NCBI GenBank assembly: GCA_964621755.1
Contig: CAZUPI010000004.1
Location: 10,821 to 74,820 of the forward strand
Direction of reading: 5' to 3'
DNA from: an uncultured Ruminococcus sp.
GTDB taxonomy: Bacteria; Bacillota; Clostridia; Oscillospirales; CAG-272
Length of the DNA: 64,000 bases
Shown here: positions 9,642 to 40,315 of the stretch, in pieces
How positions within the stretch are numbered: position 1 is the first letter of the stretch
How the letters are laid out: each line of letters starts with the position of its first letter
Notes under the pieces: generated by a model
The model's input: only the letters and a program-made list of their open reading frames with translations
What the model was told of the DNA's origin: nothing
The model's database searches: none
Made by a program: the position numbers and the translations under genes

Positions 9642-9672
9642 TACCCGGATGTATTTCCGGGTATCTTTTTTG
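9642..9672 (+). terminator. rho-independent terminator
   Basis: Stem TACCCGGA / TCCGGGTA followed by TCTTTTTTGG, 25 nt after the stop at 9617. Confidence 0.7.
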
Positions 9673-9682
9673 GGAGGAAAAA

Positions 9683-10228: not shown

Positions 10229-10234
10229 GCGGAC

Positions 10235-11355: not shown

Positions 11356-11389
11356 AAAAATACCTCTTGGTTGGAATTTTGTTATGTTA

Positions 11390-11502
11390 GGAGGGATTTT
11401 TGAAAAAATCCCTCCCAAAAACCTTTTTCACAAAAAGGGTTGGAGGTCCTCAGAAACCTTTCCTCAAAAGGTCCCTGAGCGGGGGAGAGACCCGCGGGTC
11501 TC
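11390..11502. repeat. cluster of palindromic intergenic hairpins (family member R1 plus neighbours)
   Basis: GGAGGGATTTTT-GA-AAAAATCCCTCC at 11390-11415. AACCTTTTTCACAAAAAGGGTT at 11420-11441. CTCAG..CTGAG imperfect hairpin around 11450-11479. Perfect 16-nt palindrome GAGACCCGCGGGTCTC at 11487-11502. All lie between the uvrC stop and the rsmD start. Confidence 0.7.
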
Positions 11503-11525
11503 GGGGCAGCGCCCATCCCCCTATA

Positions 11526-21046: not shown

Positions 21047-21120
21047 TGGAAACATTGGGGCTCGAACCCAAGACCTCTCGGATGTGAACCGAACGCTCTG
21101 ACCAGCTGAGCTATGCTTCC
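21047..21120 (-). tRNA. tRNA-Val (anticodon CAC)
   Basis: Hand-folded as GGAAGCA TA GCTC AGCTGGTC AGAGC G TTCGG TTCACAT CCGAG AGGTC TTGGG TTCGAGC CCCAA TGTTTCC A. The cloverleaf is intact, the T-loop is GTTCGAG, and no CCA is encoded. Confidence 0.9.
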
Positions 21121-21280: not shown

Positions 21281-21407
21281 AATATTAAAACGCGAGTTTG
21301 ACACGGCTGAGCGATTAGGGTCCGGACTGACAGAGGAAACTTATGCGGTCCCCTAATCGCTTGCTGTATTGTTTCTCATACATTTCTCCCCTCGGATGGA
21401 GGCATTC

Positions 21408-22493
21408 ATGAATTTTTTGAAAAAAATAAAATTGACGCTTGGCAAGAGAACGGGCGGCGAGGATGATATGGATGGCGAGCTGTTCTTTGATAGCGACCTA
21501 TCTGACGTTCAGAACGGCACATTCCTGAACTCCCTTGACGAGCTGTCAGAAGGAGATATTGAGCTCAATGAAACTGCGGCGCGCACCGCAAAGCTTTCCG
21601 TGCTTGAGATTGTCCGACGCGTGATGTCTTGTTTCTTTCTCGTTGCGTTTATCGTAGGCTGCATCATGCTGGTGCAGAACCTTGCGGCAAGGCGGAAGGG
21701 AGCGGAAATTTACGCACAGCTCGAGCAGGAGTTTTTCTCCACCGGATTCAGCCTCGATTTATCGAACGCCTTCCGTCCCGACGAGGGAGAGGTGAAGTAT
21801 CTCGCCGAGGATAAGGAATCCCCGACCCTTGCGGATATGACCTCCACCCTGAACGACATTGAGTCCTCTTCCGAAACGGATTTCATCCTCCCCGAACAGA
21901 AGGAGTACAACGAGGATCTTGAAAAAATGCGCGCCGGACTCGCGTCTCTGGCGCAGATCAACCCCGATGTGTACGGCTGGATCAGCATAGAAGGAACCGA
22001 AATCAACTATCCGCTCGTGCAGGGAACCGACAACGACTACTACCTCGACCACGCATATACAGGAGATTATCTTCCGGTAGGCTCCATTTTTGTGGATTAC
22101 CGCTGCAACGAGTCCATCACCAAAAACTACAACACTGTCATCTACGGACACAATATCACCTCCGGCTCCATGTTCCACGACGTCTCCAAGTTCTTCCGCG
22201 ACAGCTATTTTGAGAATACCTACATATACATATATACTATGGATGGCATATATGTATATGAGCCGTTCGCCATCTACGAGACCCGATACGACTACAACTA
22301 CTTCAAAACCAGCTTTACCTCAGCGGACGACTTTATCCAGTTCGCAGAGGAGGTGCGCGACAACTCGTCTAAACAAAAGGATGTCTCCTTCACGGGGAAT
22401 GACCGCATTATCACCTTGTCCACTTGTACCAACGGCGCGTATTATGCGCGCTATGCCCTCCACGCAAAATTGATTAAGACGATTGTAGATTGA
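21408..22493 (+). CDS. srtB: class B sortase with N-terminal cytoplasmic extension and TM anchor
   Basis: GGAGG RBS lies 5 nt before ATG 21408. TM segment VMSCFFLVAFIVGCIMLV. Sortase blocks INPDVYGWISIEGTEINYPLVQGTDNDYYL, IYGHN and the catalytic TLSTCT. Confidence 0.8.
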   Translation: MNFLKKIKLTLGKRTGGEDDMDGELFFDSDLSDVQNGTFLNSLDELSEGDIELNETAARTAKLSVLEIVRRVMSCFFLVAFIVGCIMLVQNLAARRKGAEIYAQLEQEFFSTGFSLDLSNAFRPDEGEVKYLAEDKESPTLADMTSTLNDIESSSETDFILPEQKEYNEDLEKMRAGLASLAQINPDVYGWISIEGTEINYPLVQGTDNDYYLDHAYTGDYLPVGSIFVDYRCNESITKNYNTVIYGHNITSGSMFHDVSKFFRDSYFENTYIYIYTMDGIYVYEPFAIYETRYDYNYFKTSFTSADDFIQFAEEVRDNSSKQKDVSFTGNDRIITLSTCTNGAYYARYALHAKLIKTIVD

Positions 22494-24180: not shown

Positions 24181-25023
24181 TTAAGCGTAAAAATTATGTT
24201 CGCCTATTGTCATGATGAACTGACGGTTTTGGGGTATCCACAGGCTTACAGCGATAGCTTCGTTGAGAAAGTAGAGAATGTCGGTGCTGAGAACCGCATC
24301 TTCTAAGCAGAGCTTGGCGGCGAGGATGGACTCTTCGTTCGGCTCCTGCTGAATCGCGCCGTTGACTGTGGGGGTGAACTGAACCCCGTTATCGTTGTCG
24401 AATATGACATCGTAGATGGTGTCGGGGAATTCATCGGAGCTTACGCGGTTTAGGATGACGTTCCCGACTGCCAGTTTGCCGAGGAGCGGTTCCCCTTGCG
24501 CTTCCGCGTGAATGATTCTTGCTAACCAGTAGACTTCGTCCTCATCGTAGTACTCCTCGCCGGGGACAGCCGCGCTCCGCAACCGTGTCAGGTATGTTGT
24601 GTTGTCCTCGTATTCATATGTGACGTCAAAACCGAACGCTTTTGCCGCTTTTTGCAGCGGGACGAACATGATGTCATTTTCGGTGAATACGCCGTACTGA
24701 CACCATATCATACGCCCGTTCGCTTCGATGTAGAAGGCGTCCTCCAGCGCGCTAAGCTCTAGGGAATCTGTCCGAACGTGGGCGGTATTCTCCGCTTCGT
24801 CCCACCATACCACCGAGTTGTCTGCCATGCACGCAAATTCCCGCAGCGATACGTATGCGGTATCCTTCACGGAAAGAACCGTGCCGTCATATGGGAATCC
24901 ATCTACTACAATGTAGAAGTCCGCGGGCTCGGTCTCGTAGATACATTCGGCGGAAACCGGCGCGGCAAGTGTGAGTGCTACAGCAAGTGCTGCGATAAGT
25001 AAAAGCTTTTCTGTAAATTTCAT
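24181..25023 (-). CDS. SleB-like cell-wall hydrolase with N-terminal copper-amine-oxidase-like (stalk) domain
   Basis: Signal peptide MKFTEKLLLIAALAVALTLAAPVSA. The Hydrolase_2 block reads LARIIHAEAQGEPLLGKLAVGNVILNRVSSDEFPDTIYDVIF..GVQFTP. Confidence 0.8.
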   Translation of the reverse strand: MKFTEKLLLIAALAVALTLAAPVSAECIYETEPADFYIVVDGFPYDGTVLSVKDTAYVSLREFACMADNSVVWWDEAENTAHVRTDSLELSALEDAFYIEANGRMIWCQYGVFTENDIMFVPLQKAAKAFGFDVTYEYEDNTTYLTRLRSAAVPGEEYYDEDEVYWLARIIHAEAQGEPLLGKLAVGNVILNRVSSDEFPDTIYDVIFDNDNGVQFTPTVNGAIQQEPNEESILAAKLCLEDAVLSTDILYFLNEAIAVSLWIPQNRQFIMTIGEHNFYA

Positions 25024-25331: not shown

Positions 25332-26840
25332 ATGAAATTCAAGCATATTCCGCCGTTTGCCGCGCTCGTTTTTGCGACGATACTTACGTTTCAGGCGACA
25401 TCGTGCGGTTTTATTATAGTCAATGACATGGCAGCACAGAGTGCCAGTGAGACCGACGCCGCTTCCGAAACCGAGGGAGACGCTGCCGAACCGTTCACCG
25501 GGACGGCATACACGAAGTACGCGGGGGAAGATATGTATACGCAGTCGCGCCGATACTTGGCGGAGCTGCCGGAGCGTGACTATGATGGGGCGGTATTTTT
25601 CATTACCACCCCATCGAAGGACTATATTTCCCCCGACAACACGGATACGACGGTGAATAAACTTGTGGTCGAACGGAACGCCGATGTAGAGGAGCAGTTT
25701 GACGTGACCATTATCACCTCTGTTGTGGAGGCGTCGACTATGCTGTCCGAGCTGACGCAGTGCATCGCGGCGGGCTCGTACTACAGCGATCTTTTGATGA
25801 TACCGGTGTACATGGTTGGGCAGTTCCGCAGCGCCGAGACCCTGATCAACATGCGCACTCTGCCGTTTTTCGATATCGAGCAGCCGTATTTCAATGCTGA
25901 ATCGTCCGACATGACCTCGGGCGGCTACTCGACGTATGGTGTGGCAGGGGACGCGTCGATTGCGCCGTCGTCGTTTTCCGCGGTGTTCATGAACAAGACG
26001 ATACTGGAAGAAGCCGGTGTGGACACGCCGACGATTTATAAGTCGGTGATAGAGGGAACGTGGACATGGGACGACCTACTCGGCTGCGCGGAGGCGGTCA
26101 AGACGATAAACGGCAGCCGTGGGGCAGCGGGGCTGAACGAATACTACACCATCACCGCGCAGAACACGGCTGACAGGCTGCCGGACCTTGTATTCAAATC
26201 GGGCGGCAACAACTACATCCTGGCGGGAAAGCGCACCGTCCCGGCTATCGGGTACTCGGTGAAGTCGTCGCAGGCGACGATGAACGTCCTTGCCTCGATT
26301 TACAACGACAGTCACGCCATAACGGACTCGTCAGCGGGCGCGATAAACTGCTTCTCGGCAGGAGAGTCCGCATTCTTGGTGGATTACCTGTACGTTATGT
26401 CGTGGATGATCAACGCGTCAGCGGACTGGGGCGTTCTTCCGCTGCCGAAGGGTGACGAAAACGACGAGTATCGCACGTTGATATCAAACACAGAGCTGAT
26501 TTTTGCGGTGCCGAAAAATCATACGAACGGTGAGTTCCCGGCAATTATCCTATCTGCGCTGAACGCAGCGTCATACGGCTACATCTATGATGAATACGTC
26601 GACTACCACATGATTCACGTACTTCGCGACAACGATTCCGTCAACATGCTGGACTTGATTCTCGATACAGCATCGTTCGACTTCGCCCTCGCCTTTGGAA
26701 ATGCGTACCCAACCATAGCCGCAGCTACCTACCGCCTCATCCGCGACTGCGCCGCTACAAATAACCTCGCTGATTATTTCACCGACCGGAAGACAACGGC
26801 AACTGAGACGCTGAAAGAATATTTCCCGCTGAAGCCTTAA
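25332..26840 (+). CDS. extracellular solute-binding-protein-like lipoprotein (about 500 aa), orphan
   Basis: Lipobox LTFQATSCG. Overall architecture and blocks (DYDG.., ..ERN..V...F.V.I) are shared with the 35011..36483 paralogue. No permease or ATPase gene is adjacent. Confidence 0.65.
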   Translation: MKFKHIPPFAALVFATILTFQATSCGFIIVNDMAAQSASETDAASETEGDAAEPFTGTAYTKYAGEDMYTQSRRYLAELPERDYDGAVFFITTPSKDYISPDNTDTTVNKLVVERNADVEEQFDVTIITSVVEASTMLSELTQCIAAGSYYSDLLMIPVYMVGQFRSAETLINMRTLPFFDIEQPYFNAESSDMTSGGYSTYGVAGDASIAPSSFSAVFMNKTILEEAGVDTPTIYKSVIEGTWTWDDLLGCAEAVKTINGSRGAAGLNEYYTITAQNTADRLPDLVFKSGGNNYILAGKRTVPAIGYSVKSSQATMNVLASIYNDSHAITDSSAGAINCFSAGESAFLVDYLYVMSWMINASADWGVLPLPKGDENDEYRTLISNTELIFAVPKNHTNGEFPAIILSALNAASYGYIYDEYVDYHMIHVLRDNDSVNMLDLILDTASFDFALAFGNAYPTIAAATYRLIRDCAATNNLADYFTDRKTTATETLKEYFPLKP

Positions 26841-26850
26841 AGAAAAGGAA

Positions 26851-26892
26851 GGCGTTAGGGGAACACTTTTTCAAAAGTGTCCCCCTAACGCC
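26851..26892. repeat. palindromic hairpin (family member R4)
   Basis: GGCGTTAGGGGAACACTTTT-TC-AAAAGTGTCCCCCTAACGCC, a 20-bp stem with one mismatch, 11 nt after the stop at 26840. Confidence 0.8.
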
Positions 26893-26915
26893 TCCACATT
26901 TCGCAGAAAAACATC

Positions 26916-26944
26916 TTGTTAAATCTATTGTTTCGTGATATAAT
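26916..26944 (+). promoter_or_regulatory. sigma-A type promoter for the cytochrome-c cluster (TTGTTA-17-TGA-TATAAT)
   Basis: TTGTTA at 26916-26921, a 17-nt spacer ending in TGA (extended -10), and TATAAT at 26939-26944. It lies about 58 nt upstream of ATG 27002. Confidence 0.55.
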
Positions 26945-27001: not shown

Positions 27002-27691
27002 ATGAAAAAACGAAAAATTCAGCTCTATGATGCGGTGTGCGCGGCTCTTCTTCTGATAACGTTGTTTTTCCTTGTACTCACCGTGAAGTTTTCCACAGGA
27101 AGTTCGGTCAACTTTAACGGTGCGGTCACGACGGCTGTGCTGGCATTTGGCGGCGTTCTCGCGTTCGGTTCGCTGTTTGCGCGGCGGCTGTCCGGCGGTG
27201 CGGTGAAGAAGACCGGATTTTATCTTGCTCATGCGGGGGTTGTTTTGATTCTTGTGGGATTTGCACTGTTCCAGCTATTCGGAGATACAGTGACTGCGGC
27301 AGTTCCGGTGGGCGGCGACACTTTTTATTCGCAAATCCAGCGGGAATCGGGGGAGATGTGCGACCTTGGCTTCAACTTCCGTGTGGACGATTTTGAAATC
27401 GAGACTTATGAGGATGGTTCGGACAAGCAGTATTATGCGGGTCTGGCCTTTGCGGATGAAGTTACGCTGCGGGTAGACACGTCTGAGTTGTCGGTGAATC
27501 ACACGGTACGCCGCGGCGGGTGGAAAATCTACCTTATGAATTATAGCAGCGGGTACGTAAGTCTGATGTTCCGCCGCGACCCGGGCGAGTATGTTGTGAA
27601 GGCGGGGATTGCAGCGCTGATTGCGGGATGCGTTCTCTCCCTCATCGCCGGAAACGGGGTGCGCAAGAAGGAGGAGAACGCCGATGCGTGA
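27002..27691 (+). CDS. miniature ResB/CcsB-like cytochrome c biogenesis protein
   Basis: 229 aa. TM helices flank a short extracytoplasmic loop. Blocks resembling the ResB family: GFYLAHAGVVLILVGFAL (conserved His in a TM), FNFRVDDFEIETYEDGSDKQYYAGLAF, LSVNHTVRRGGWKIYLMNYS and MFRRDPGEYVVKAGIAALIAG. The stop overlaps the next start (ATGCGTGA). Confidence 0.65.
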   Translation: MKKRKIQLYDAVCAALLLITLFFLVLTVKFSTGSSVNFNGAVTTAVLAFGGVLAFGSLFARRLSGGAVKKTGFYLAHAGVVLILVGFALFQLFGDTVTAAVPVGGDTFYSQIQRESGEMCDLGFNFRVDDFEIETYEDGSDKQYYAGLAFADEVTLRVDTSELSVNHTVRRGGWKIYLMNYSSGYVSLMFRRDPGEYVVKAGIAALIAGCVLSLIAGNGVRKKEENADA

Positions 27692-28457
27692 CGTTATTTT
27701 GCGCGGAATTATTCTTTTGGCCACTCTTTTGTACGGCGGGGCGCTTGTGCTGTATCTGCGGCGGAAGGCCAAAGTCGGCGGTATCGTCTGGATTTTGGCG
27801 GAGGCTTTGTCGGTCGTCCTTGTGGTGAACAATTTTGTGGTCAACGGATACGTGCCGTTTGTGAGCATGTATCAGCTTTTGACCTTTGCGGCGGCGCTTT
27901 TTGGTGTGGTGTATTGTTATATTGCGCGTCTGCGGAATGGAAAATGGGCGGCGCCCTACTTTATCGGGTGTTCGCTCGTGGCGTCGCTTGGGCTGTGCTT
28001 TATGGACATTCACGCGGTATGGCATTTTCCGCCGGCGCTTCGGTCGGTATGGTTCGTTCCCCACATTCTGGCGTACGTGATATCTTACATCATGGCGGCA
28101 GCGGCGTTTGCCATGACGGTCACGAAATTTTTCGCAAAAGGCGAACGAAGAAAACAGCTCGACGGCGGAATTTACGACTGCGTATGCGTACTGTTCCCGT
28201 TCATGTCGATGGGGATGCTGTTCGGCGCGGTATGGGCGAACGAGGTCTGGGGTGCATTCTGGAGCTGGGACATCAAGGAATGCTGGTCCCTTGTGACATG
28301 GCTGACCTTTATGACATGGCTCCACGTCCGCCGCAGTCCCAGATTCTCGAGATTCAAGGACGTCCTCCTCGTCGCCGGATTTGCATTCGTGATTGTGACA
28401 TTCTTTTTTGTGAATCTCATGAATGCGGCGGGGGGATCTATGCATGCGTATAACTGA
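27684..28457 (+). CDS. ccsA: CcsA/ResC-like cytochrome c assembly (haem-handling) protein
   Basis: AGGAGGAG RBS lies 8 nt before ATG 27684. It is polytopic. The WWD haem-handling motif reads WGAFWSWDIKECWSLVTWL, with flanking conserved His in VPHILAYV and WLHVRR. Confidence 0.8.
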   Translation: MRDVILRGIILLATLLYGGALVLYLRRKAKVGGIVWILAEALSVVLVVNNFVVNGYVPFVSMYQLLTFAAALFGVVYCYIARLRNGKWAAPYFIGCSLVASLGLCFMDIHAVWHFPPALRSVWFVPHILAYVISYIMAAAAFAMTVTKFFAKGERRKQLDGGIYDCVCVLFPFMSMGMLFGAVWANEVWGAFWSWDIKECWSLVTWLTFMTWLHVRRSPRFSRFKDVLLVAGFAFVIVTFFFVNLMNAAGGSMHAYN

Positions 28458-28597
28458 GATTTTGGGGAGTGGATGGCGCTGACATTTGGTTTGGGCTCAC
28501 TCTTCAGCCATATGAAATTATGTTCCACCCCATATAAAAGTTTTTAGAGGGGTATAACTTAACGTCTTCCCCAAAATACAACCATCAGGAGAACATT

Positions 28598-30733
28598 ATG
28601 AAATCAAAATGGAAGTTGTTGTTGGCGGCTTTGCTGTTGCCTGTGCTTGCGGCATGCGGCACAGTTGAGCGGTCGGACAACGTTGCGCCTACGCTGGAGG
28701 AGCGGATTGATGCGGAAGAATATATTTCGCCATCGTCCGTTTTTGTGGCGGAGGACGGATTTATTTATGCTGCGGATGAGACTGGCGGGCGGGTATTGAA
28801 GCTGAATCCGGACGGCAGTATTGCGGCGCAGGCTGTGCTTGAAGGCGGCGCGCACTGTATCAGGGTATACGGTGATTCGGTTTACGTCGCGCGGGGAGAG
28901 CTTGACGGGACGTTGGCGGTACTCGATGAAGATTTGCGGTTAACCGGAGAATACATAGTTGGACACACGCCGACGGATATCGAGTTTTCGGAAAGCAGAA
29001 TTTATGTTACGAACCGGTTTTCGAATACGGTTTCGGTAATTGATACGGAGTCGGGAGACATTAGAGAAATCCCTGTTGGGCGGGAGCCCATGGCGGCGGC
29101 GATTGCGAACAACAAGCTGTATGTTGCGTGCCATCTGCCCGATGATGCTGCAAACGCGGATGTTGTCAGTGCGTCGGTTTATGTTATCGATATGGCGACG
29201 GAGGCGGTGCGCACGATTGAGCTTGTCAACGGGACGGGCGGCGTGAAGGATATCGAGGCTGCGCCTGACGGAACAAGACTCTTTGTGTCCGCCGTGATTG
29301 CGCGGTATCAATATCCTACGACCCAGCTTGACGGTGCGTGGATCAACTCGAACGGATTTGCCATCATTGATGCGGAGACTGACGAGTATGTGAACACGAT
29401 TCTTCTCGATGATGTGACGCTCGGGGCGGCGTCCCCGTGGGGCATTGCTTTCGGAGGGGGAAATGTGTACTTTGCGGCGTCGGGGACAAGTGAAATCATC
29501 AGCTTTCCGCTCGACCGGCTGGATTCGCTGCTTGGCTCTGCGGCCTACCGCGGACGGGAGCTTGCGGACGAAATCGGCATTTTGAACAGCATCCGCACCC
29601 GGACCGAGATGCCGGGCGAGGGGGTACGGGATATCATGTATGCGGAGGGCAAGCTCTACTGCACGGAGTACTTCACCGGTGACCTTGCGGTGCTTGATAC
29701 TTCCGATATGACCATTGCCACCTTATCCCTTGGAGAGCAGCCGGAAGCAGATATTGTGCGCCTTGGTGAGACGTTGTGGTATGACGCGACGAAATGCTAT
29801 CAGCAATGGGAGGCTTGTGCGTCCTGCCATCCCGACGGACGTGTGGACGGCTTCAACTGGGACAACCTGAACGATGGCCTCGGTAATCCGAAATCTGCGA
29901 CCTCCATGATGTATACGCACCGCTGTCCGCCGGTTATGACGACGGGCATTCGCGCCAACGCGGAAACTGCGGTCCGTGCCGGCATGAAGTATATTCAGTT
30001 CAACACCATTGACGAGGAGTCCAACTGTGCGATTGATGAATATTTGAAATCCCTTCTTCCGGTCGACTCACCAGCGCTGAACCTCGATGGGACCCTCAGC
30101 GAGGCGGCAGCGGAAGGAAAACTGCTGTTCACGGAATATGGCTGTGTGACTTGTCATCCCGCACCCTTGTACACGGACCTTGAGTATCACACCTCTCCGA
30201 TTCTGGGGGAGGATGGCGGATGGGAAAACCGCGATTTTGTAACGCCGACCCTCGTCGAAGTTTGGAGAAGCGCGCCGTACATGTACAACGGCTCGGCTCT
30301 TACTCTTGAGGATGCGGTGAGACATTTTGTCCCCGAAGGAACTTCGGAGGAGAAGATTGAGAAGCTGGCCGAGTTCGTCCGTTCTATCGGCAGTTCCGGT
30401 GAGATTTACGGGGTCGAGCAGCTTTATTCCGTAGGCGCGGACGGAGGCGAAGTGCAGGGAAGACCTGTGGAATATACGCGTATCAGCGGATTTACCGTTC
30501 GCTGTCAGAGTGAGGATGCGCCCGCGTGCAAAGCAATTCTGACGCTGACGGGAGATGACGGGCAAGTTTCCTATGAGACCAATATCGGAACTGTGCCGTA
30601 CAATACGGCGGTGCGTGTGACCGTTGACGTGGACTTGTATGCACAGCCTGGCGGCGAGGTCCGCCTTGCGCTGGTCGACAAAAAGGGCAATCCGCTGGCG
30701 TCCGAGTACGTTCTGACAGTCAAGGAAAGCTGA
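28598..30733 (+). CDS. lipoprotein: YVTN-type beta-propeller fused to di-haem cytochrome c peroxidase (CCP/MauG)-like domain
   Basis: AGGAGA RBS. Lipobox LLPVLAACG. Propeller repeats include IYVTNRFSNTVSVIDTESG, KLYVACH and RLFVSAV. Two haem-c motifs are present, CASCH and CVTCH. The CCP-like block reads FVTPTLVEVWRSAPYMYNGSALTLEDAVRHF. Confidence 0.75.
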   Translation: MKSKWKLLLAALLLPVLAACGTVERSDNVAPTLEERIDAEEYISPSSVFVAEDGFIYAADETGGRVLKLNPDGSIAAQAVLEGGAHCIRVYGDSVYVARGELDGTLAVLDEDLRLTGEYIVGHTPTDIEFSESRIYVTNRFSNTVSVIDTESGDIREIPVGREPMAAAIANNKLYVACHLPDDAANADVVSASVYVIDMATEAVRTIELVNGTGGVKDIEAAPDGTRLFVSAVIARYQYPTTQLDGAWINSNGFAIIDAETDEYVNTILLDDVTLGAASPWGIAFGGGNVYFAASGTSEIISFPLDRLDSLLGSAAYRGRELADEIGILNSIRTRTEMPGEGVRDIMYAEGKLYCTEYFTGDLAVLDTSDMTIATLSLGEQPEADIVRLGETLWYDATKCYQQWEACASCHPDGRVDGFNWDNLNDGLGNPKSATSMMYTHRCPPVMTTGIRANAETAVRAGMKYIQFNTIDEESNCAIDEYLKSLLPVDSPALNLDGTLSEAAAEGKLLFTEYGCVTCHPAPLYTDLEYHTSPILGEDGGWENRDFVTPTLVEVWRSAPYMYNGSALTLEDAVRHFVPEGTSEEKIEKLAEFVRSIGSSGEIYGVEQLYSVGADGGEVQGRPVEYTRISGFTVRCQSEDAPACKAILTLTGDDGQVSYETNIGTVPYNTAVRVTVDVDLYAQPGGEVRLALVDKKGNPLASEYVLTVKES

Positions 30734-30749
30734 GGAGGGATTCTATATT

Positions 30750-33700
30750 ATGAAGAAAACGATTCAAATTCTGTCCCTTATCCTAACGCTTGCGATGCTC
30801 TGCAGCGCGGTGGTGATTTTTGCGGCAGGTGACAAGCTGTCCTTCTCTTTGTCGAGCGAAGCGGTGCTGGTGAACACCTATGAAGCCGGCGAGAATGCCG
30901 ATGTGATTGGCAGGCTGTATGAGGAAACGCCGTATTATATTGTGGTTCGGCACCGGCAGCTCGGCGCGTCGCATTACGCTTATACAGAAGCGCTCGCGGA
31001 AGACCTCGGTCAGGACAACGCGGACCCGGAGGGCGGGGAAGCGGTCTTCAATCCCGGATCGGAGCTTGTGCTTGTGACAATTGTGAAGGACGGCGACACG
31101 TACTCCACTTATGAAGACGTGCTTCTGTCCTCGAAAAAAGGCGTCATCCGCGACCCGGATGTGTCTGCGGACGGGACCAAAGTCCTGTTTTCGTGGAAGC
31201 AGCAGAGCACGGACGACTATCATCTCTACGAAATGACCCTTCAGAACCGGGAAATCAGGCAGCTCACTTTCGGCTCCGGCGTCGCCGATACCGAAGGAAA
31301 ATACCTGTCGGACGGCTCGATTATTTTCAGCTCCTCAAGGGATATCCAGACTGTGGACTGCTGGATAACTCCCGTATCGAACCTATATAAGTGCAGTGCA
31401 GACGGAACGGATATCATCCGGCTCGGCTACGACCAGGTCCACACCTCTTACCCGACCGTGACCTCGGACGGGCGAATCATCTACACCAGATGGGACTACA
31501 ACGACCGCACGCAGATGTGGATTCAGTCGGTATTCCAGATGTTCGAGGACGGCACCAACCAGACCGAGCTGTATGGCAACAATTCGGATTTCCCGACGTC
31601 TCTTCTGCACACGCGCGAGGTGCCGGGGCATCCGGGACTGTATCTTTCTATCGCCTCCGGACATCACGTTTATCAACACGGCAAACTGGTGCTGATAGAC
31701 ACGTCGGTCGACAGAAACAGCAGCGACGCGGTGGAATTTGTTTTCAGCGACGGCACCCGGAAGGAAAATAGCGTCGACACCTTCGGGCAGTCCGGCAGGC
31801 AGTACAAATACCCTTACGCGTTTTCGGACGACTTGTTCCTCTACTCGGCAGTGGACAATTACACCGGTGTGAGTGCGGAATTTTCCATTTATGCTTATGA
31901 CAGAACGACTGATACGGAGGTTGAGCTGGTGACGGGCACAAAGGGAATCGGCGCATCGCAGATTGTTCCGGTCTACACCCGCGACCTGTTCACCCGCCCC
32001 AGCATGGTCAACTATGCTTCGGAAACCGGAACGTTCTACGTATCAAACGTGTATGAAGGGGAGGCAATGGAGGGCGTTGAAGTCGGCTCCGTGCAGTATT
32101 TGCGGGTTGTTGAGCTGGAATTCCGCTCCTCCGCAATAGGGGCTACGGTCGCAGTTGGCTCGGGCTCCGCTGACCCGTTTTCCCCTATTGCAACGGGAAA
32201 TGGCTCGTGGGACGTCAAAACCGTGCTTGGCGTGGCGCCGGTTGAGGAAGACGGGAGCGCGCTGTTCAAAGCGCCCGCGAATACGCCGCTGTTCTTCCAG
32301 CTGCTCGACGAAAACGGATGCGTCGTTCAAACCATGCGTTCTTGGACGACTCTCATGCCAAACGAGACCTTCTCCTGTGTGGGCTGCCATGAGGATAAAA
32401 ACATCGCTCCCACGGTCAGCGGGACGGTCACCATGGCTATGAAAAAGGGTGTGGTTGAAATCGAACCGGACCTGTGGATGACCGACGAAACGTATGACCC
32501 GTATACGGACGCGGTGGGCTTCTCGTTCCTTGAGGAAGTGCAGCCGATACTGGATAAGAACTGCATCGTCTGCCACTCCGACACCGACGAAGCCTACTCC
32601 CTGATAAGCGCACGCGCGGCAGCAGGATACGACACCACCCCCGCGGACGTTATTCTGGCCGAGGATGCAGTATGGCACTACACGACCACAGCACCAGCCG
32701 CCGACTGGCTGACCGACTTTACACCGGACTCTGCCTCACACGCGCCCTTTGCCGACGGCGAGACCGAGCCATACGAACACAATACCGTGTGGACCTCCGG
32801 GGAGCTTTGGGCGCGGACGACCTTCACCGGTACTGTTTACGACCTCAACAACTCCTCTCTGGCGTTCACGGGACAGCTTTGCGGCAAGGCGGAAATCTAC
32901 CTCAACGGCGCCCTTGTGGCGGAGGTTGAAAACAAGACGTCCGACGTCGTGAGTATTCCGGTGACTGGAGACATGCGAGAGGCATTCCTGTTTGGGGAAA
33001 ATACACTTGCGGTACACGTGACCGACGGCAAGTATTTTACCCTAGGTCTGACCTCTTTGGCGAGTGCAACAGGAGATCAGAAGTACTTTATCAGGCAGTA
33101 CGCATTGTGGGAATATATCAGAGCGAAGGATTTGTCCTATGCTCCCGACGGCTGGATCACGCTTGAAGATGATTCGACCAAATGGCAGACCGGACAGACC
33201 CCGTTCGGAGACCGCACCATTGACGGTATCGGCTATAAAACCGCATGGTCAGGGGCTGCCAACGCAATTTTCATCAGGCGCACGTTTACGGTAGACGATA
33301 TTGAAAAGTTCAAAAACTCGTCTCTTTGGACCAAAATCACGTATGACGACGGCATCAAGCTCTACATCAACGGCAAGCTGCTGTACGAAGACACGGGCTG
33401 GGTCGACAATTACGTCGAGATTGAGCTGTGTAAGGATGCGGCGGAATACCTCGTCGAGGGAGAGAACATCATTGCGATATCCCTCTGCAATACGGCGGGC
33501 GGACGACAGATAGACCTGTCCCTGTACGCATACGAAAGGGAACCGAATCAGGAGGAGGTCGAACCCCTTGACTCGTCCCGCGAATCGGCATTCTCGCTGG
33601 AAAACATCAACGTGGTCGGCTCGCGGCAGAAGAAATACTGGCCCCTGTCCTATCTTGTTCTCACCGGCTCTTATCCCAGCAGTACAAACTGGCTTGCGTC

Positions 33701-34826
33701 ACCGAACGGAGATTATGTGAATTTCCTGTCGTCGATGAGCGGCGCGGAAATCGTCGAGCCGTACTCCTTCGGTTCGTCAAAGAGCAGACTGATTGAGCTT
33801 TTGCGCAGCGGTCACGGAGACCTCACCGAAGAGGAAATCCGCACCATCGCATGTTGGATCGACCTTGTTGTCCCGGCGTACGGCGCATACGACGAGAACG
33901 TGACGTGGAGCGCCAACGACCAGCGCGAATTCGATGAAAAATCGAACAAGCGCGAATATTACGATAACCTGAATAAAGCGGTTATAGACGAAAAAGCAGG
34001 CGTGTATAACAGCGTCGGCGATGTGACGATTGAATTTTTGCGGACAAACGGTACTGTGGCGGCGACGGCGTCCGGTCAGGGCTTTGCGATACTGAACATC
34101 GACGGCACATACGTAGCAAAGGAGAGTGTGAGAATCACGCTTCCGGAGGGTGAAAAATACGTCGCGGTATGCTTGTCGTCCAAGCTGGGCGAGAGCATTG
34201 TATACTGTCCGGATGGGGTATTTGAATACAAATTCCCCACGCAGATGGGAAATATTTATCCGACCGCGCTGGATGATTCGAAGGATACCGTCTACATTGC
34301 CAACGTGATAAGCGCACGGATTCCGACGAAAGACGAGCTGACAGCGTCCCGCAACCTGGCAGAGAACGTGTACGACCTGAAGGATAACGCATCATCTTAT
34401 CCTCACGCGTCGACAAACAGCGTAGCAGACAGCGGCGCGGCGTACTACGAGGCGAGATGCGCCATCGACAGCTTCACAGCGAATACCGGGCATGGCACAT
34501 ATCCCGTTCAGTCATGGGGACCGGAAAAGGACACAATGGCAGACAACTGCCTTACCGTTGACTTTGGCCGGACGGTCAAGCTGGATGCGCTCGAAATCAT
34601 CATTCGCTGCGACTTCCCGCATGACACATGGTTCACTGGCGCCGACGTCACCTTCTCGGACGGGACAACGGAGCACATTGATCTATACAAAACGGAGTCC
34701 GCAATGGTCTTTAACCTGGGCGGCCGCGAAACCACGTCCATCAGGCTCTCCGGCTTCACCACCGCCGGTGATGCTTGGGCGGCAATCACCGAAATCCGTG
34801 CGATTGGGTCTGATATTGTAGAATAA
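30750..34826 (+). CDS. giant secreted multidomain protein: TolB/PD40-like propeller + di-haem (2x CxxCH) hydrazine-synthase-alpha-like region + tandem jelly-roll modules + discoidin (F5/8 type C)-like C-terminus
   Basis: 1358 aa with signal peptide MKKTIQILSLILTLAMLCSAVVIFAAG. PD40-like blocks: DPDVSADGTKVLFSW, YLSDGSIIFSSSR and TSDGRIIYTRWDYNDR. Haem motifs: MRSWTTLMPNETFSCVGCHEDKN and LDKNCIVCHSD. Two similar modules start at WHYTTTAP.. and WEYIRAKD... The C-terminal block reads NCLTVDFGRTVKLDALEIIIRCDF..ITEIRAIG. Confidence 0.7.
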   Translation: MKKTIQILSLILTLAMLCSAVVIFAAGDKLSFSLSSEAVLVNTYEAGENADVIGRLYEETPYYIVVRHRQLGASHYAYTEALAEDLGQDNADPEGGEAVFNPGSELVLVTIVKDGDTYSTYEDVLLSSKKGVIRDPDVSADGTKVLFSWKQQSTDDYHLYEMTLQNREIRQLTFGSGVADTEGKYLSDGSIIFSSSRDIQTVDCWITPVSNLYKCSADGTDIIRLGYDQVHTSYPTVTSDGRIIYTRWDYNDRTQMWIQSVFQMFEDGTNQTELYGNNSDFPTSLLHTREVPGHPGLYLSIASGHHVYQHGKLVLIDTSVDRNSSDAVEFVFSDGTRKENSVDTFGQSGRQYKYPYAFSDDLFLYSAVDNYTGVSAEFSIYAYDRTTDTEVELVTGTKGIGASQIVPVYTRDLFTRPSMVNYASETGTFYVSNVYEGEAMEGVEVGSVQYLRVVELEFRSSAIGATVAVGSGSADPFSPIATGNGSWDVKTVLGVAPVEEDGSALFKAPANTPLFFQLLDENGCVVQTMRSWTTLMPNETFSCVGCHEDKNIAPTVSGTVTMAMKKGVVEIEPDLWMTDETYDPYTDAVGFSFLEEVQPILDKNCIVCHSDTDEAYSLISARAAAGYDTTPADVILAEDAVWHYTTTAPAADWLTDFTPDSASHAPFADGETEPYEHNTVWTSGELWARTTFTGTVYDLNNSSLAFTGQLCGKAEIYLNGALVAEVENKTSDVVSIPVTGDMREAFLFGENTLAVHVTDGKYFTLGLTSLASATGDQKYFIRQYALWEYIRAKDLSYAPDGWITLEDDSTKWQTGQTPFGDRTIDGIGYKTAWSGAANAIFIRRTFTVDDIEKFKNSSLWTKITYDDGIKLYINGKLLYEDTGWVDNYVEIELCKDAAEYLVEGENIIAISLCNTAGGRQIDLSLYAYEREPNQEEVEPLDSSRESAFSLENINVVGSRQKKYWPLSYLVLTGSYPSSTNWLASPNGDYVNFLSSMSGAEIVEPYSFGSSKSRLIELLRSGHGDLTEEEIRTIACWIDLVVPAYGAYDENVTWSANDQREFDEKSNKREYYDNLNKAVIDEKAGVYNSVGDVTIEFLRTNGTVAATASGQGFAILNIDGTYVAKESVRITLPEGEKYVAVCLSSKLGESIVYCPDGVFEYKFPTQMGNIYPTALDDSKDTVYIANVISARIPTKDELTASRNLAENVYDLKDNASSYPHASTNSVADSGAAYYEARCAIDSFTANTGHGTYPVQSWGPEKDTMADNCLTVDFGRTVKLDALEIIIRCDFPHDTWFTGADVTFSDGTTEHIDLYKTESAMVFNLGGRETTSIRLSGFTTAGDAWAAITEIRAIGSDIVE

Positions 34827-34830
34827 TAAT

Positions 34831-34864
34831 ATAGGGGGAAACTTTTCGGAAAGTTTCCCCCTAT
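34831..34864. repeat. palindromic hairpin (family member R5)
   Basis: ATAGGGGGAAACTTT-TCGG-AAAGTTTCCCCCTAT, a perfect 15-bp stem, 5 nt after the stop at 34826. Confidence 0.8.
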
Positions 34865-34891
34865 ATTTTATTTTATTCATGTGAGTTGGCC

Positions 34892-35010: not shown

Positions 35011-36483
35011 TTATCCACCAATTCCCAGTGCTTCGATGGCCTTTTCAATTGTTTTTGAGAAGGAGCGCTCGTATCTGGCAGCGGCGGAGGCGTACTGGCC
35101 GTCTTTTAAGCCGGCGTTATATGCTACGATTGGGGAGCTTACGTTGAAGGCGTAGCTGAGGTCGTAGGCGCGTTTTGTAATGAGGTCTTTGAGGAGCGCG
35201 GCGCTTTCACGGTCGCGGGTACCTTTACCGATTACCGCTTTTTCGATGTAGACGTCGAGCACGTTGTCGTATGTGTCGGCTGCAAGAGCTTCGATGATGG
35301 TCGCCAGACGTTCATCGTTGTCGCAGTCAGAGGGGATGATGATGGTAAACGGATTCTGGATGTATACCATGCCGTCGGTGTTCTCGGCGAGTGACGGGTA
35401 TGCGATGATGCCGTAGTCATCCTCTTTGTCACGAAGGTTACGGAAGTCGCCCATCAGACGGCTGTAGAACAAAACGCTTCCTTCTTTGAAGAGGTTTCTG
35501 GTTTCATCATTTCGTCCGACCAGCGAGTAGTTTGTGTTATTGATGATTTTGTTCATCCAGTCGCCGACCGCCATGACGTTTTCGTCGGTAATATTCAAGA
35601 CATAGGTATTTGCAGACTCATCAAAGACTATCAGACGCAGGTTTGACGAGTACAGGCTCGGCAGGTATTCAAAATCACGGCCCGCCCAGCCGAAAATGTC
35701 GTGGGCTTCGTCCATCTTGCCGTCGCCGTTCTGGTCAACCGCAACTTGAGTCATCATGTTGTACATGGCGTCAAGCGTCCACTTTCCGGCGGTATACAGC
35801 TCGTACGGTGTGTCCGCAATGTTGTTGTCCTCAAGTAAGTCAGCGTTGTAGAAAAGGAGAGCCATTGATTCGTAGTGGTCGAAGCTGATGTCACAGTGTC
35901 CGTAATAGAGCTTGCCGTTGATGGTCAGAGTTTCCTGGGAACCCTTATCCCAATAGGGTTTTGTCAGATCAATCACCGGCATGTCAGAGATTGCCTTCAC
36001 GTAGTTCTGGGATATCAAATCCATACATTCCTGAAGGAGTGCGTAGCCAAATCCGACGTCCCCGGTTCCTGCTGTTACAGAATTTTTGATGAGGCTGACT
36101 GCACCGGTGGTGTTTTCTTCAATTACAACATTGAACTTGTCCATTACACGGACATTTCGGTCATAAATGGCGTCATTGAACGCGTCCCCTGTCAGCTCTT
36201 CCGTTGTGAAAGCGCTGAAATACTCCTCGCTGAGTCCGTTGTTTGCGATGTGCAGCGTCCAGCCGTCGTAGTCGACTGCGGCAATTTCATCTGCATAGTG
36301 GGTTTGACCGTCATCTTCCTCTGCAATTTGGGTCTCGGTGGATGCCGTATCATCGGCAGTGACGGTTGTCGGAACGCTCGTTTTATCTTCAGCGCTGTTT
36401 TCTGTGGAGTCTGAGCATGATGCCGTCATGAGCATGAGCAGAAGCGCTATAAAGATCGCTGTTCCCTTTTTGAAGCTATTCAT
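35011..36483 (-). CDS. extracellular solute-binding-protein-like lipoprotein (about 490 aa), orphan paralogue
   Basis: AGGAGAG RBS before ATG 36483. Lipobox LMLMTASCS. Distant paralogue of 25332..26840 (shared blocks DYDGW, IYDRNVRVMDKFNVVI, PYWDK). No transporter genes are adjacent. Confidence 0.65.
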   Translation of the reverse strand: MNSFKKGTAIFIALLLMLMTASCSDSTENSAEDKTSVPTTVTADDTASTETQIAEEDDGQTHYADEIAAVDYDGWTLHIANNGLSEEYFSAFTTEELTGDAFNDAIYDRNVRVMDKFNVVIEENTTGAVSLIKNSVTAGTGDVGFGYALLQECMDLISQNYVKAISDMPVIDLTKPYWDKGSQETLTINGKLYYGHCDISFDHYESMALLFYNADLLEDNNIADTPYELYTAGKWTLDAMYNMMTQVAVDQNGDGKMDEAHDIFGWAGRDFEYLPSLYSSNLRLIVFDESANTYVLNITDENVMAVGDWMNKIINNTNYSLVGRNDETRNLFKEGSVLFYSRLMGDFRNLRDKEDDYGIIAYPSLAENTDGMVYIQNPFTIIIPSDCDNDERLATIIEALAADTYDNVLDVYIEKAVIGKGTRDRESAALLKDLITKRAYDLSYAFNVSSPIVAYNAGLKDGQYASAAARYERSFSKTIEKAIEALGIGG

Positions 36484-36633
36484 TTTTCTCTCCTGTGTTT
36501 GACCTTTGTTGAAAGATGTCCTAAGTATACCATAATTCCGGAAAATATGCAATATTTTTTTAGAAATGCGACCAATTTACGCGTAAAATTTAAGTAAAGC
36601 TTAAGAAAAACGTACCTTATTTAAAAAAAATTC

Positions 36634-36662
36634 TTGACAAAAGAGGACGACTATGCTATAAA
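36634..36662 (+). promoter_or_regulatory. sigma-A type promoter with extended -10 (TTGACA-17-TGC-TATAAA)
   Basis: TTGACA at 36634-36639, a 17-nt spacer ending in TGC, and TATAAA at 36657-36662. The ORF-track start 36634 is this -35 box. Confidence 0.6.
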
Positions 36663-36720
36663 GGCTCAAAACACCGCACATTCTCTTATATTTATTTTAA
36701 TCCATAAAAGGAGGAGTAAA

Positions 36721-37719
36721 ATGAAAAAGACAATATCCATTGTCATGGCAATGCTTCTTGCAGCGGTGACCGCAGTGTCCGCAGGTGCTGCAACATTTAC
36801 CGACTTTGACTCATATGAAAAGTTTGAAGAAGGTGGAAACCCTGTCTACGCCTTCGAGGACCCCGCAGACTACTGGGACGGCGAATGGAGTGGCGGTGGT
36901 GACAATGGCGACGAGCAGACCACAGAAAACCGGGACGGCGTTGGTTTTATGGGTTCAAAGGGTCTGGTAGTATCTTCGTCCGGGACCGCAAACGTAGGTC
37001 TTTATCTGTTCGCAACAGCTGACAATAAGATCCCGACCGACTATACCGGCGCCGCATACCTGCGCGTATGGTGCGATTTTACAAATATTGAATTTAGAAA
37101 AGCTAATTTCGGTGTGACCGACAGTACATACTCTCTGTTTTCAACCGACGAAGTTGATGGGGCATGGGAGTGCAAATTCTTCTACTCAGAAGATGGCGTC
37201 AACTGGAGCGAGTATCTGCACGGCAGTGACGGATGTTTCGGCGACGCACAGGATTCGGCAATCGCAGGCTTAAAGGGATGGTTCGCATTCCCGGTTGCTG
37301 ACTTCACCATTCGCAGCAATGCAAACTGGGAAGCATACGATGAGCTCACACCGGCTAATATAGCAGATGTAAGCGGCGTATACCTGTTCTGGGACTACTC
37401 TGACAACGGTGATTATGCAGGTCAGACATTCGTGCTGGACAATGTTGAATTTGTTGCGGATTACAAGGTATTCGATTACGCAATAACAGACACGGCGGAA
37501 GAAGCAGCTCCTGCAGAAGAAGCGGCTCCCGTTGAGGAAACTCCTGCAGAAGAGGCGGCTCCTGTTGAAGAAGTGGTAGCTCCTGTAGAGGAAGTTGCAG
37601 CTCCCGTTGAGGAAGTAGTAGTTGCAACAGCGCCGCAGACCTTTGACCTCGGCGTTATCGCAGCAATTTCCGCAGTCGTTTCGGCAGCTGGATTTGCAGT
37701 AAGCAAGAAGAGAAAATAA
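36721..37719 (+). CDS. cell-surface protein: signal peptide, jelly-roll/CBM-like domain, acidic Pro-rich repeat linker, C-terminal hydrophobic anchor with KKRK tail
   Basis: AGGAGG RBS before ATG 36721. Signal peptide MKKTISIVMAMLLAAVTAVSAGA. Linker EEAAPAEEAAPVEETPAEEAAPVEEVVAPVEEVAAPVEEVV. The C-terminus reads TAPQTFDLGVIAAISAVVSAAGFAVSKKRK. Confidence 0.7.
   Translation: MKKTISIVMAMLLAAVTAVSAGAATFTDFDSYEKFEEGGNPVYAFEDPADYWDGEWSGGGDNGDEQTTENRDGVGFMGSKGLVVSSSGTANVGLYLFATADNKIPTDYTGAAYLRVWCDFTNIEFRKANFGVTDSTYSLFSTDEVDGAWECKFFYSEDGVNWSEYLHGSDGCFGDAQDSAIAGLKGWFAFPVADFTIRSNANWEAYDELTPANIADVSGVYLFWDYSDNGDYAGQTFVLDNVEFVADYKVFDYAITDTAEEAAPAEEAAPVEETPAEEAAPVEEVVAPVEEVAAPVEEVVVATAPQTFDLGVIAAISAVVSAAGFAVSKKRK
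37498..37626 (+). repeat. imperfect tandem repeat (15-21-nt units, GAAGAAGCGGCTCCYGTT-like) encoding the (E-E-A/V-A-P-V/A)n linker
   Basis: Seven consecutive related units are visible in the DNA: GAAGAAGCAGCTCCTGCA, GAAGAAGCGGCTCCCGTT, GAGGAAACTCCTGCA, GAAGAGGCGGCTCCTGTT, GAAGAAGTGGTAGCTCCTGTA, GAGGAAGTTGCAGCTCCCGTT, GAGGAAGTAGTAGTT. Confidence 0.8.
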
Positions 37720-39163: not shown

Positions 39164-39247
39164 TGCCGGTAGCGGGGGTCGAACCCGCACGCTGTTGCCA
39201 GCAGCGGATTTTGAGTCCGCCTCGTCTGCCAATTCCAACATACCGGC
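39164..39247 (-). tRNA. tRNA-Leu (anticodon CAA)
   Basis: Minus strand reads GCCGGTATGTTGGAATTGGCAGACGAGGCGGACTCAAAATCCGCTGCTGGCAACAGCGTGCGGGTTCGACCCCCGCTACCGGCA. It has a long variable arm, anticodon loop CTCAAAA and acceptor GCCGGTA/TACCGGC. Confidence 0.9.
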
Positions 39248-40184: not shown

Positions 40185-40196
40185 GATATCTTTTTA

Positions 40197-40267
40197 CAGC
40201 GGTACAGGGATTCGAACCCCGACATACAGAGTCAGAGTCTGCTGTGCTACCTTTACACAATACCGCT
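40197..40267 (-). tRNA. tRNA-Gln (anticodon CTG)
   Basis: Hand-folded as AGCGGTA TT GTGT AAAGGTA GCAC A GCAGA CTCTGAC TCTGT ATGT CGGGG TTCGAAT CCCTG TACCGCT G. 71 nt, with a few G-U pairs. Confidence 0.8.
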
Positions 40268-40315
40268 ATCTCCAAGAGGGGACTGCTTGTACAGCCGTTC
40301 TCGTTGACGATCATT

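Follow-up and report, generated by a model that had tools for sequence, protein, structure and literature searches.

We analysed a 64,000-nucleotide (nt) stretch of contig CAZUPI010000004.1 from an uncultured Ruminococcus sp. (the window, meaning the whole stretch at its full length), with attention to a single open reading frame (ORF) of 1358 codons at 30750..34826 on the plus strand. The encoded protein is a relative of the alpha subunit of hydrazine synthase (HZS), and the gene immediately upstream encodes a dihaem lipoprotein homologous to fused HZS beta and gamma subunits; we refer to the two products as the alpha-like and beta-gamma-like proteins. Two further genes, for ResB-like and CcsA-like proteins, precede them, and matches to consensus signals indicate that all four would be read as one plus-strand transcript, with the coding region spanning 27002-34826. 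Since ResB and CcsA together constitute System II of cytochrome c maturation, this four-gene cassette holds a complete set of HZS subunit homologues together with a dedicated haem-attachment machine. A preliminary description of the 1358-residue protein, made from the sequence alone, had overlooked this decisive context, namely the ResB-CcsA pair and the beta-gamma-like dihaem lipoprotein in the same operon. The features of the locus are as follows.

26916..26944, plus strand: promoter-like site 5' of the ResB-like gene (TTGTTA, 17-nt spacer, TATAAT with a TG extension; 10 of 12 consensus positions matched)
27002..27691, plus strand: minimal ResB/CcsB-like membrane protein of System II cytochrome c biogenesis, 229 residues (Pfam ResB, E 1.3e-23)
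27684..28457, plus strand: CcsA-like haem-handling subunit, 257 residues (Pfam Cytochrom_C_asm, E 2.7e-25)
28598..30733, plus strand: beta-gamma-like lipoprotein of 711 residues, a YVTN beta-propeller followed by a dihaem CCP/MauG-like domain, homologue of the HZS beta-gamma fusion (NCBIfam and PDB matches)
30750..30827, plus strand: predicted signal peptide or signal anchor of the alpha-like protein, residues 1-26
30828..32084, plus strand: N-terminal domain and TolB-like beta-propeller, residues 27-445 (TolB model match, conservation, AlphaFold with Foldseek)
32085..32393, plus strand: HZS_alpha middle domain, residues 446-548, ending in haem motif 1 (Pfam match; 5c2v_A aligned over residues 484-548)
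32394..32648, plus strand: linker, then the putative N-terminal half of the second haem domain, which contains CIVCH, haem motif 2 (5c2v_A, weak but colinear)
32649..33074, plus strand: jelly-roll module 1, residues 634-775, galactose-binding-like, a variable accessory copy (z = 14; GH2_N2, E 1e-3)
33075..33539, plus strand: jelly-roll module 2, residues 776-930, galactose-binding-like (duplication; profile matches to the jelly rolls of 7kmm_A and 3w5m_A)
33540..33929, plus strand: putative second half of the second haem domain, residues 931-1060, with His1022 and CWIDLxVP (shorter relatives; conservation)
33930..34289, plus strand: long helix and small beta-sandwich, residues 1061-1180 (AlphaFold secondary structure; in all 67 aligned homologues)
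34290..34826, plus strand: C-terminal discoidin/DUF7402-like jelly roll, residues 1181-1358, with the stop codon (sub-threshold Pfam matches; Foldseek)
34828..34867, plus strand: terminator-like hairpin, an 18-bp stem followed by TTATTTTATT, closing the four-gene unit

The promoter-like site is the best match to the promoter consensus within 25-37 kb, and no gene besides those for ResB, CcsA, beta-gamma and alpha lies between it and the terminator-like hairpin. The CcsA start codon (ATG 27684) overlaps the ResB stop codon, and a Shine-Dalgarno sequence, GGAGGG, 8 nt 5' of the ATG at 30750 overlaps the stop codon of the 711-residue gene. The ResB-like protein scored 84 bits against a Pfam cutoff of 24.6, with coverage limited to profile positions 147-266 of 486. 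The CcsA-like protein scored 89.7 bits against a cutoff of 29.9 for Cytochrom_C_asm, and matched the ccsB model TIGR03144 (E 5.8e-37) with 127.8 bits, under the equivalog cutoff of 187.6; its WWD motif, WGAFWSWDIKE, is intact, as in a System II CcsA. With recent horizontal acquisition in mind, we compared the GC content of the cassette (0.53-0.57) with that of its flanks (0.47-0.55); the two do not differ clearly, and base composition reveals no anomaly. A 20-bp near-perfect hairpin (26848-26895) stands between a solute-binding-protein gene upstream and the promoter-like site of the cassette. Its T-run is on the minus strand, on which no gene terminates at this point, and the hairpin probably ends the transcript of the upstream gene or works in both directions.

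The alpha-like and beta-gamma-like proteins

The alpha-like protein opens with MKK and a hydrophobic stretch running to IFAA and is predicted from this N-terminus to be exported, in agreement with the preliminary description, which had taken it for a secreted protein of 1358 residues. The PD40/TolB-like propeller proposed there was recovered with the NCBIfam TolB model TIGR02800 (residues 123-256, E 2e-10), the Pfam PD40 repeat itself matching weakly (E 0.13), and the proposed membership of the HZS_alpha-domain family was confirmed by Pfam PF18582, which matched residues 446-548 over its full profile, 1-98 (E 2.5e-32; score 111.7 bits, cutoff 26.6). The link to HZS through this middle domain was thus correct, but its extent had been underestimated, as the whole N-terminal ~630 residues are colinear with HZS alpha and fold like it. 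Among solved structures, sequence similarity to the protein was found for 5c2v_A (HZS alpha, E 3.5e-7) and TolB and for no others, and a profile built from 67 homologues matched 5c2v_A in five colinear segments that extend from the propeller as far as haem motif 2 (E 3.9e-13). An AlphaFold model of residues 27-640 (614 residues; predicted local distance difference test score, pLDDT, 81.7) returned 5c2v_A as the top PDB match in Foldseek (E 2e-23, query template modelling score, TMq, 0.65, 691 aligned columns), with TolB structures as runners-up (~1e-11, TM 0.37). Predicted structure and profile agree on the overall fold of HZS alpha, comprising a propeller, a middle haem domain and a C-terminal haem domain.

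The two haem motifs that had been noticed earlier are strongly conserved. Among the 120 best homologues (42-78% identity), motif 1 (CVGCH, residues 543-547, nt 32376-32390) is kept in all 120 and motif 2 (CIVCH, residues 605-609, nt 32562-32576) in 113; orthologues lacking both motifs, which the preliminary description had said would speak against its interpretation, were accordingly not among them. The CIVCH region aligns with residues ~640-665 of 5c2v_A and corresponds to the motif of the second, bis-His haem, alpha-II. In the homologue alignment, invariant columns are densest at propeller residues 200-322 and near haem motif 1, and the invariant propeller residues include TRWDYNDR (246-253), SGHH (303-306), H231 and H287. 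This clustering points to a catalytic site more than to a scaffold. Beyond the jelly rolls, His1022 (motif RxGHGxLT) is nearly invariant and is retained in short relatives; on grounds of conservation it is a candidate for the distal ligand of haem 2.

The preliminary description had suggested that a galactose-binding-like module was duplicated in tandem at nt 32670-33060 and 33108-33540. Residues ~639-767 indeed align to residues ~784-925 with a Smith-Waterman score of 100, compared with 29.5 +/- 4.9 for 500 shuffles (z = 14.3); alignment with shuffling was relied upon because BLASTP of the protein against itself gave the identity match alone. Both modules also gave weak GH2_N and BetaGal_ABD2 matches (E 1e-3 to 1e-2). 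Their placement downstream of the haem region, however, did not hold. In three short relatives (P0200, 740 residues; P0205, 785 residues; P0231, 802 residues) a homologue of residues 931-1060 of the window protein begins within 10-20 residues of the second CxxCH (Smith-Waterman scores 134-199, z 22-40), the motifs in common being FSL...SYLxLT...PYxxGSxKSxL...GH...LTxEE...CWIDLxVPxxGxY. Because both halves of the domain are contiguous in these shorter proteins, we interpret the ~296 residues containing both jelly rolls as an insertion into the second haem domain. The shorter relatives carry this assignment, as a Pfam scan of a chimera of the two halves gave no significant match and the 67-homologue profile gave none to the C-terminal part of 5c2v_A.

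The accessory modules vary between species around a constant set. Module 1 is missing from ~20 of the 67 aligned homologues and some have an additional copy-sized insertion; many carry a further ~140-residue insertion, and C-terminal tails reach 744 residues. Module 2, present in every Clostridial homologue examined, is constant among the 67; so too are the discoidin-like end, the small beta-sandwich and the C-terminal half of the second haem domain. Residues 1061-1180, which include the sandwich, matched neither Pfam nor any other family. For the C-terminus, the earlier assignment as discoidin-like is borne out by matches to F5_F8_type_C (E 5.9e-4, 20.4 bits, below the cutoff of 28.2) and by an AlphaFold model of residues 575-1358 (784 residues, pLDDT 89.3), for which Foldseek placed the discoidin domains of neuropilin b1b2 at the top and also returned jelly rolls of glycoside hydrolase (GH) families GH35, GH2 and GH78. 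DUF7402 matched the same residues (E 6.4e-4, 20.3 bits, below the cutoff of 27), and homologues have precomputed PF00754 or PF24135 annotations. The Foldseek matches to this model were of the generic jelly-roll kind, with TM scores that are low because the model holds several domains, and they named no specific carbohydrate-binding module (CBM) family. Additional precomputed domains across the homologues are F5/8C, Big_2, RicinB and dockerin. A Pfam scan found no dockerin in the alpha-like protein of the window, and type I dockerins (PF00404) occur in homologues P0022, P0029, P0041, P0043, P0044, P0054, P0088 and P0109.

The beta-gamma-like protein has a lipobox, LAAC, at residues 17-20 and two haem motifs, CASCH (407-411) and CVTCH (516-520), both invariant in 73 homologues. 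With the two of the alpha-like protein these make up the only CxxCH motifs in the retained ORFs of at least 100 residues in the window. NCBIfam models for hydrazine_BC (NF052342, E 1.6e-19), hydrazine_gamma (6.3e-14) and hydrazine_beta (1.4e-11) all matched, with scores far under their cutoffs. Its best solved relatives are 5c2v_C (HZS gamma, E 1.9e-11) and 5c2v_B (HZS beta, E 3.5e-11), with which only a generic YVTN surface-layer protein ranks. Counterparts of beta and gamma are thus encoded beside that of alpha, as for the HZS complex. The C-terminal half matched CCP_MauG, MauG, MbnH and the peroxidase 3o5c_A weakly; the CCP_MauG profile reached 25.9 bits against a cutoff of 25.6, with no single stretch attaining the cutoff. 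The last ~110 residues (~600-711) are poorly conserved in the 73 homologues and match no family; they may be a variable beta-sandwich extension.

Distribution and relation to known systems

A survey of one genome per GTDB species yielded at least 590 loci with relatives. Nearly all of the best 80 are from metagenome-assembled genomes (MAGs) of Clostridia (Oscillospiraceae, Acutalibacteraceae, Lachnospiraceae and Christensenellales) from the rumen, caecum, colon or faeces of ruminants, rabbit, chicken and humans. The family had been recognised correctly in the preliminary description, which had however placed its emphasis on Planctomycetes, Verrucomicrobia and Bacteroidetes; in Firmicutes the family is far from marginal. 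Upstream sequence sufficed in 71 loci, and in 70 of these the beta-gamma-like gene lies immediately 5' of the alpha-like gene. CcsA lies 5' of the beta-gamma-like gene in 52 of the 61 loci with enough flank and somewhere in the locus in 54, and a ResB homologue belongs to the cassette in most related loci. Beyond the cassette the genes vary between species and the flanks are otherwise unrelated, the only other recurrent neighbour being an AraC-family regulator, which adjoins the cassette in 29 of 83 loci. In a collection of 1.84 billion representative proteins (50% identity clusters, metagenomic), 1116 relatives of the alpha-like core were found at E <= 1e-30 and 3106 at E <= 1e-10; in six distant members that were scanned the core is fused to ConA-like lectin, DUF1559, DUF7402, PKD, peptidase M23, cadherin-like, CBM35 and PA14 domains. 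Fermentative gut Clostridia are not usually expected to have c-type cytochromes, and here a compact cassette apparently devoted solely to building two of them at the cell surface occurs in hundreds of uncultured species from human gut, rumen and caecum.

Several loci depart from the common arrangement. No ResB or CcsA was found in the surveyed sequence of L003, L004, L013, L050, L071, L073 and L084, and in L065, L070 and L074 the pair stands 3' of the alpha-like gene instead of 5' of the beta-gamma-like gene, the cassette being rearranged. Of the best 80, one locus alone is not Clostridial, namely L084 from a Candidatus Sumerlaeota MAG; its alpha-like protein (9536-12640, 1034 residues) has a long N-terminal extension and one jelly roll at the same nested position, without the C-terminal modules, and no beta-gamma-like gene lies immediately upstream. 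One subclade (L004, L017, L019, L023, L027, L042, L045 and L046) has genes for Gfo/Idh/MocA and xylose-isomerase-like TIM-barrel (AP_endonuc_2) proteins together with AraC, at ~0.1-6.5 kb in locus coordinates, 5' of the cassette. Sets like these typically belong to pathways that oxidise and isomerise sugars. The window has one Gfo/Idh/MocA gene (18265-19248), ~8 kb upstream of the cassette.

Anammox HZS (Kuenenia stuttgartiensis, 5c2v; beta and gamma fused in Scalindua) has the same subunit set, with beta-gamma encoded before alpha. In both HZS and the Clostridial form, alpha is built from a propeller, then a middle domain that bears haem motif 1, then a small second haem domain, and beta-gamma combines a propeller with a dihaem domain like that of cytochrome c peroxidase (CCP), for a total of four CxxCH motifs in the complex. 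Sequence identity is ~16-17%, and jelly-roll and Ig-like modules lengthen the Clostridial alpha-like protein by ~730 residues; two of these modules sit inside its second haem domain. The Clostridial complex, with a lipoprotein and a secreted subunit, is predicted to lie on a Gram-positive cell surface, whereas HZS lies in the anammoxosome; and ResB-CcsA is found inside the Clostridial operon.

The complex was rejected as a hydrazine synthase because HZS-specific residues are absent; scores also fall far under the equivalog cutoffs, with 48.9 bits against 800 for alpha (NF052339, a local match over residues 485-548) and 69.5 bits against 1250 for beta-gamma. In HZS, the iron of haem alpha-I is ligated by Tyr591, four residues past the CxxCH histidine, which itself binds zinc. 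The corresponding residues after H547 of the alpha-like protein are EDKNIAPTVSGTV, and no Tyr occurs within 13 residues, nor in the family consensus. In a phmmer alignment, gamma His144 pairs with Thr448 of the beta-gamma-like protein and gamma Cys165, the third covalent haem link, falls in a gap; neither Thr448 nor the nearby Cys443 is conserved in the 73 homologues. No candidate for an octahaem hydrazine dehydrogenase was found within the window, where no other ORF of at least 100 residues has a CxxCH.

To our knowledge, HZS was long held to lack relatives, and these were first recognised in 2025, solely in a few Gram-negative anaerobes. Clusters of HZS-like alpha and beta-gamma genes, of unknown function, were described in December 2025 from Planctomycetota, Desulfobacterota, Acidobacteriota and Verrucomicrobiota, and grouped in clades I-IV (Planctomycetota, Syntrophobacter, Paludibaculum and Opitutus); that text is silent on Clostridia, a few Oscillospirales proteins appearing in its supplementary hit list only (Hagglund et al., PMC12758564). 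The Clostridial form shares with clades I-IV the co-localised alpha-like and fused beta-gamma-like genes and a canonical haem 1 that lacks Tyr591, key HZS residues not being conserved; Hagglund et al. likewise found non-anammox homologues to lack Tyr591 and not to be hydrazine synthases (PMC12758564). The TM score of 0.65 against 5c2v_A is close to the 0.66-0.67 of other non-anammox homologues (PMC12758564). In clades I-III, however, alpha lies upstream of beta-gamma and an FG-GAP/CRTAC1 gene is present, whereas the Clostridial order is beta-gamma then alpha, without FG-GAP. The clade I beta-gamma protein carries eight extra haems, and its Clostridial counterpart none. Also in contrast to clades I-IV, the Clostridial operon includes ResB-CcsA, and its alpha-like protein bears lectin-like modules both in the nested position and at the terminus, several homologues having dockerins as well. 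The Clostridial cassette is therefore a distinct form of the functionally unexplained HZS-like clusters, differing in gene order, FG-GAP and haem content, ResB-CcsA and lectin-like modules. A literature search found no paper on the Clostridial HZS-like family. With at least 590 loci, the Clostridial clade is large, and it offers a genetically simple four-gene system for learning what HZS-like complexes do.

Likenesses to two other groups of proteins bear on function. With CCP and MauG/MbnH, the beta-gamma-like protein shares two CxxCH motifs and a CCP-type motif at the second haem (FVTPTL...PYMYNGS); unlike them, it is fused to a YVTN propeller, has an unconserved Thr in place of the inter-haem Trp and is paired with an alpha-like partner. 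Modular Clostridial carbohydrate-active enzymes (CAZymes) and cellulosomal proteins resemble the alpha-like family in joining a conserved core to variable jelly rolls (GH2_N-like, CBM67-like and discoidin-like), Big_2, RicinB and type I dockerins, and AraC-type neighbours are frequent in both. The Clostridial HZS-like core, in contrast to CAZymes, is a haem c protein and has no glycoside hydrolase, lyase or esterase fold, and the protein of the window itself lacks a dockerin.

Proposed function and alternatives

Starting from the observed homologies, the conservation of all four haem motifs and the gene linkage, we propose, with a probability of roughly 0.55, that a four-haem c-type cytochrome enzyme at the cell surface, built like HZS and held on a glycan, has the alpha-like protein as its large subunit. 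A single transcript covering 27002-34826 would yield both maturation proteins, CcsA and the minimal ResB, as well as the lipid-anchored beta-gamma-like subunit and the secreted alpha-like subunit. ResB-CcsA very probably moves haem out across the membrane and links it covalently to the four CxxCH motifs there, and the alpha-like protein very probably docks onto the beta-gamma-like lipoprotein, as alpha does on beta-gamma in HZS. Hydrazine would not be made: haem 1 should be of the ordinary kind with a His ligand, placed where propeller and middle domain meet, and the gamma-specific residues are missing. The dihaem module might react with a small oxidant, perhaps H2O2, by analogy with CCP and MauG, and oxidising equivalents or an intermediate might then pass to the alpha-like site, where a second substrate could be transformed. 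The nested jelly rolls and the C-terminal discoidin-like module may tether the complex to a glycan, which would serve as substrate or as the surface of action. Such a self-contained reaction of oxidant and substrate fits the lack of any encoded electron-transfer partner.

Glycan targeting is suggested by the jelly-roll folds, by the CAZyme-like variation in modules and tails, including dockerins, by the fusions to CBM35, PA14, ConA-like and DUF7402 domains, and by the AraC neighbours. The preliminary description had proposed that redox chemistry acts on a carbohydrate surface or that the protein is anchored to one; this is compatible with all our findings, and its interpretation as a whole is partly supported. 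CAZyme-like modularity of this kind, with jelly rolls nested in the alpha-like protein, a discoidin-like end and, in relatives, dockerins and CBM35/PA14 modules, raises the possibility of haem redox chemistry on polysaccharide surfaces in anoxic guts. A bolder version, which we regard as speculative and rather unlikely, is that the complex is a haem-c counterpart, for strictly anaerobic gut Firmicutes, of the lytic polysaccharide monooxygenases, attacking glycans or glycan-bound groups oxidatively with trace H2O2 and in some species joining cellulosomes through dockerins. If it were true, a glycan-oxidising role would reveal the type of chemistry ancestral to anammox HZS.

Several observations weigh against the proposal of a glycan-held HZS-like enzyme. 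Every jelly-roll assignment falls under the Pfam threshold and no sugar-binding residues were identified in these modules; dockerins and jelly rolls of this kind also act as mere anchors at the cell surface. The position of the inter-haem Trp of CCP and MauG is occupied in the beta-gamma-like protein by Thr448, which is not conserved, so that the peroxidase mechanism is no more than an analogy. No thiol-reducing partner (CcdA/DsbD or ResA) is encoded in the four-gene unit or its scanned neighbours, and no electron donor or acceptor partner near the cassette. Seven of the 61 loci with enough flank have no ResB or CcsA within reach. Gut Clostridia are often haem auxotrophs, which leaves the haem supply unexplained. 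Finally, no non-anammox HZS homologue has a confirmed function, according to Hagglund et al. (PMC12758564).

The principal alternative is surface detoxification, in which a peroxidase, or a nitric oxide (NO) or hydroxylamine reductase, would shield a strict anaerobe from oxidants derived from host or diet, the lectin-like modules and dockerins serving merely for retention on the cell surface, mucus or fibre. We consider it a tentative, distinctly less than even, prospect. In its favour are the CCP/MauG-like dihaem domain of the beta-gamma-like subunit and the reported binding of NO by haem I of HZS gamma (PMC12607021). A secreted partner of an anchored lipoprotein requires some means of retention, and dockerins serve many non-cellulolytic proteins (PMC9012536). 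The large and highly conserved propeller site is nevertheless left unexplained by detoxification, as are the nested jelly roll in every Clostridial member and the fusions to CBM35, PA14 and ConA-like domains in other phyla. Nor does the cassette encode a reductant supply, and its recurrent neighbours are AraC-type rather than oxidative-stress regulators.

The remaining explanations are poorly supported. An extracellular electron-transfer conduit, in which metabolic electrons would leave the membrane through the four haems for external acceptors such as Fe(III), humics or partner cells, appears improbable. It would account for c-type haems outside a Gram-positive membrane with maturation genes of their own, and for the surface-attachment modules of homologues; each protein has only two haems, however, neither the cassette nor the rest of the window encodes a membrane quinol- or NADH-linked cytochrome, and the architecture belongs to an enzyme whose active sites are in propellers, not to a haem wire. 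Genuine anammox-type N-N bond formation in gut Clostridia is highly improbable, being effectively refuted by the residues at Tyr591, gamma His144 and gamma Cys165 and opposed by the low equivalog scores and the lack of a hydrazine dehydrogenase candidate in the window. Equally implausible is a haem-free lectin or adhesin with the CxxCH motifs as structural leftovers: although propeller and jelly-roll modules typical of adhesins make up most of the protein, the motifs are invariant or nearly so in the 120 homologues, down to 42% identity, and ResB-CcsA lies in the same unit, with the cassette proteins as its sole CxxCH clients in the window.

Remainder of the window

The rest of the window is an ordinary Firmicute chromosome, with genes for a sortase, an SLH-domain protein, FtsH, TilS, UvrC and IleRS. 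Family-1-type solute-binding proteins are encoded on either side of the cassette (25332-26840, plus strand, 502 residues; 35011-36552, minus strand, 513 residues), without adjoining genes for ABC permeases or ATPases. The downstream one has the same position in L006 and L007 (73-74% identity) and is not found in distant loci. We considered both as possible parts of the cassette and excluded them because their conservation is limited to the closest relatives. Two substrate-binding-protein genes have been noted 3' of the clade III clusters (Hagglund et al., PMC12758564).

Two ORFs had no Pfam match (E <= 1e-3 / 1e-4): 36634-37719 (plus strand, 361 residues), which has a homologue 3' of the cassette in L006 (66% identity), and 8274-9617 (plus strand, 447 residues). 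The three tRNA genes, all on the minus strand, are at 21047-21120 (Val-CAC), 39164-39247 (Leu-CAA) and 40196-40268 (Gln-CTG); none borders the cassette, and there is therefore no sign of a tRNA-targeted island. Genes for the cell envelope encode an SLH-domain transglutaminase-like protein (46228-48009, plus strand), a sortase (21369-22493, plus strand) and a cell-wall hydrolase with a copper-amine-oxidase-N1-like domain (24181-25023, minus strand). These are typical of an S-layer-bearing Firmicute and are relevant to the retention of surface proteins in this host.

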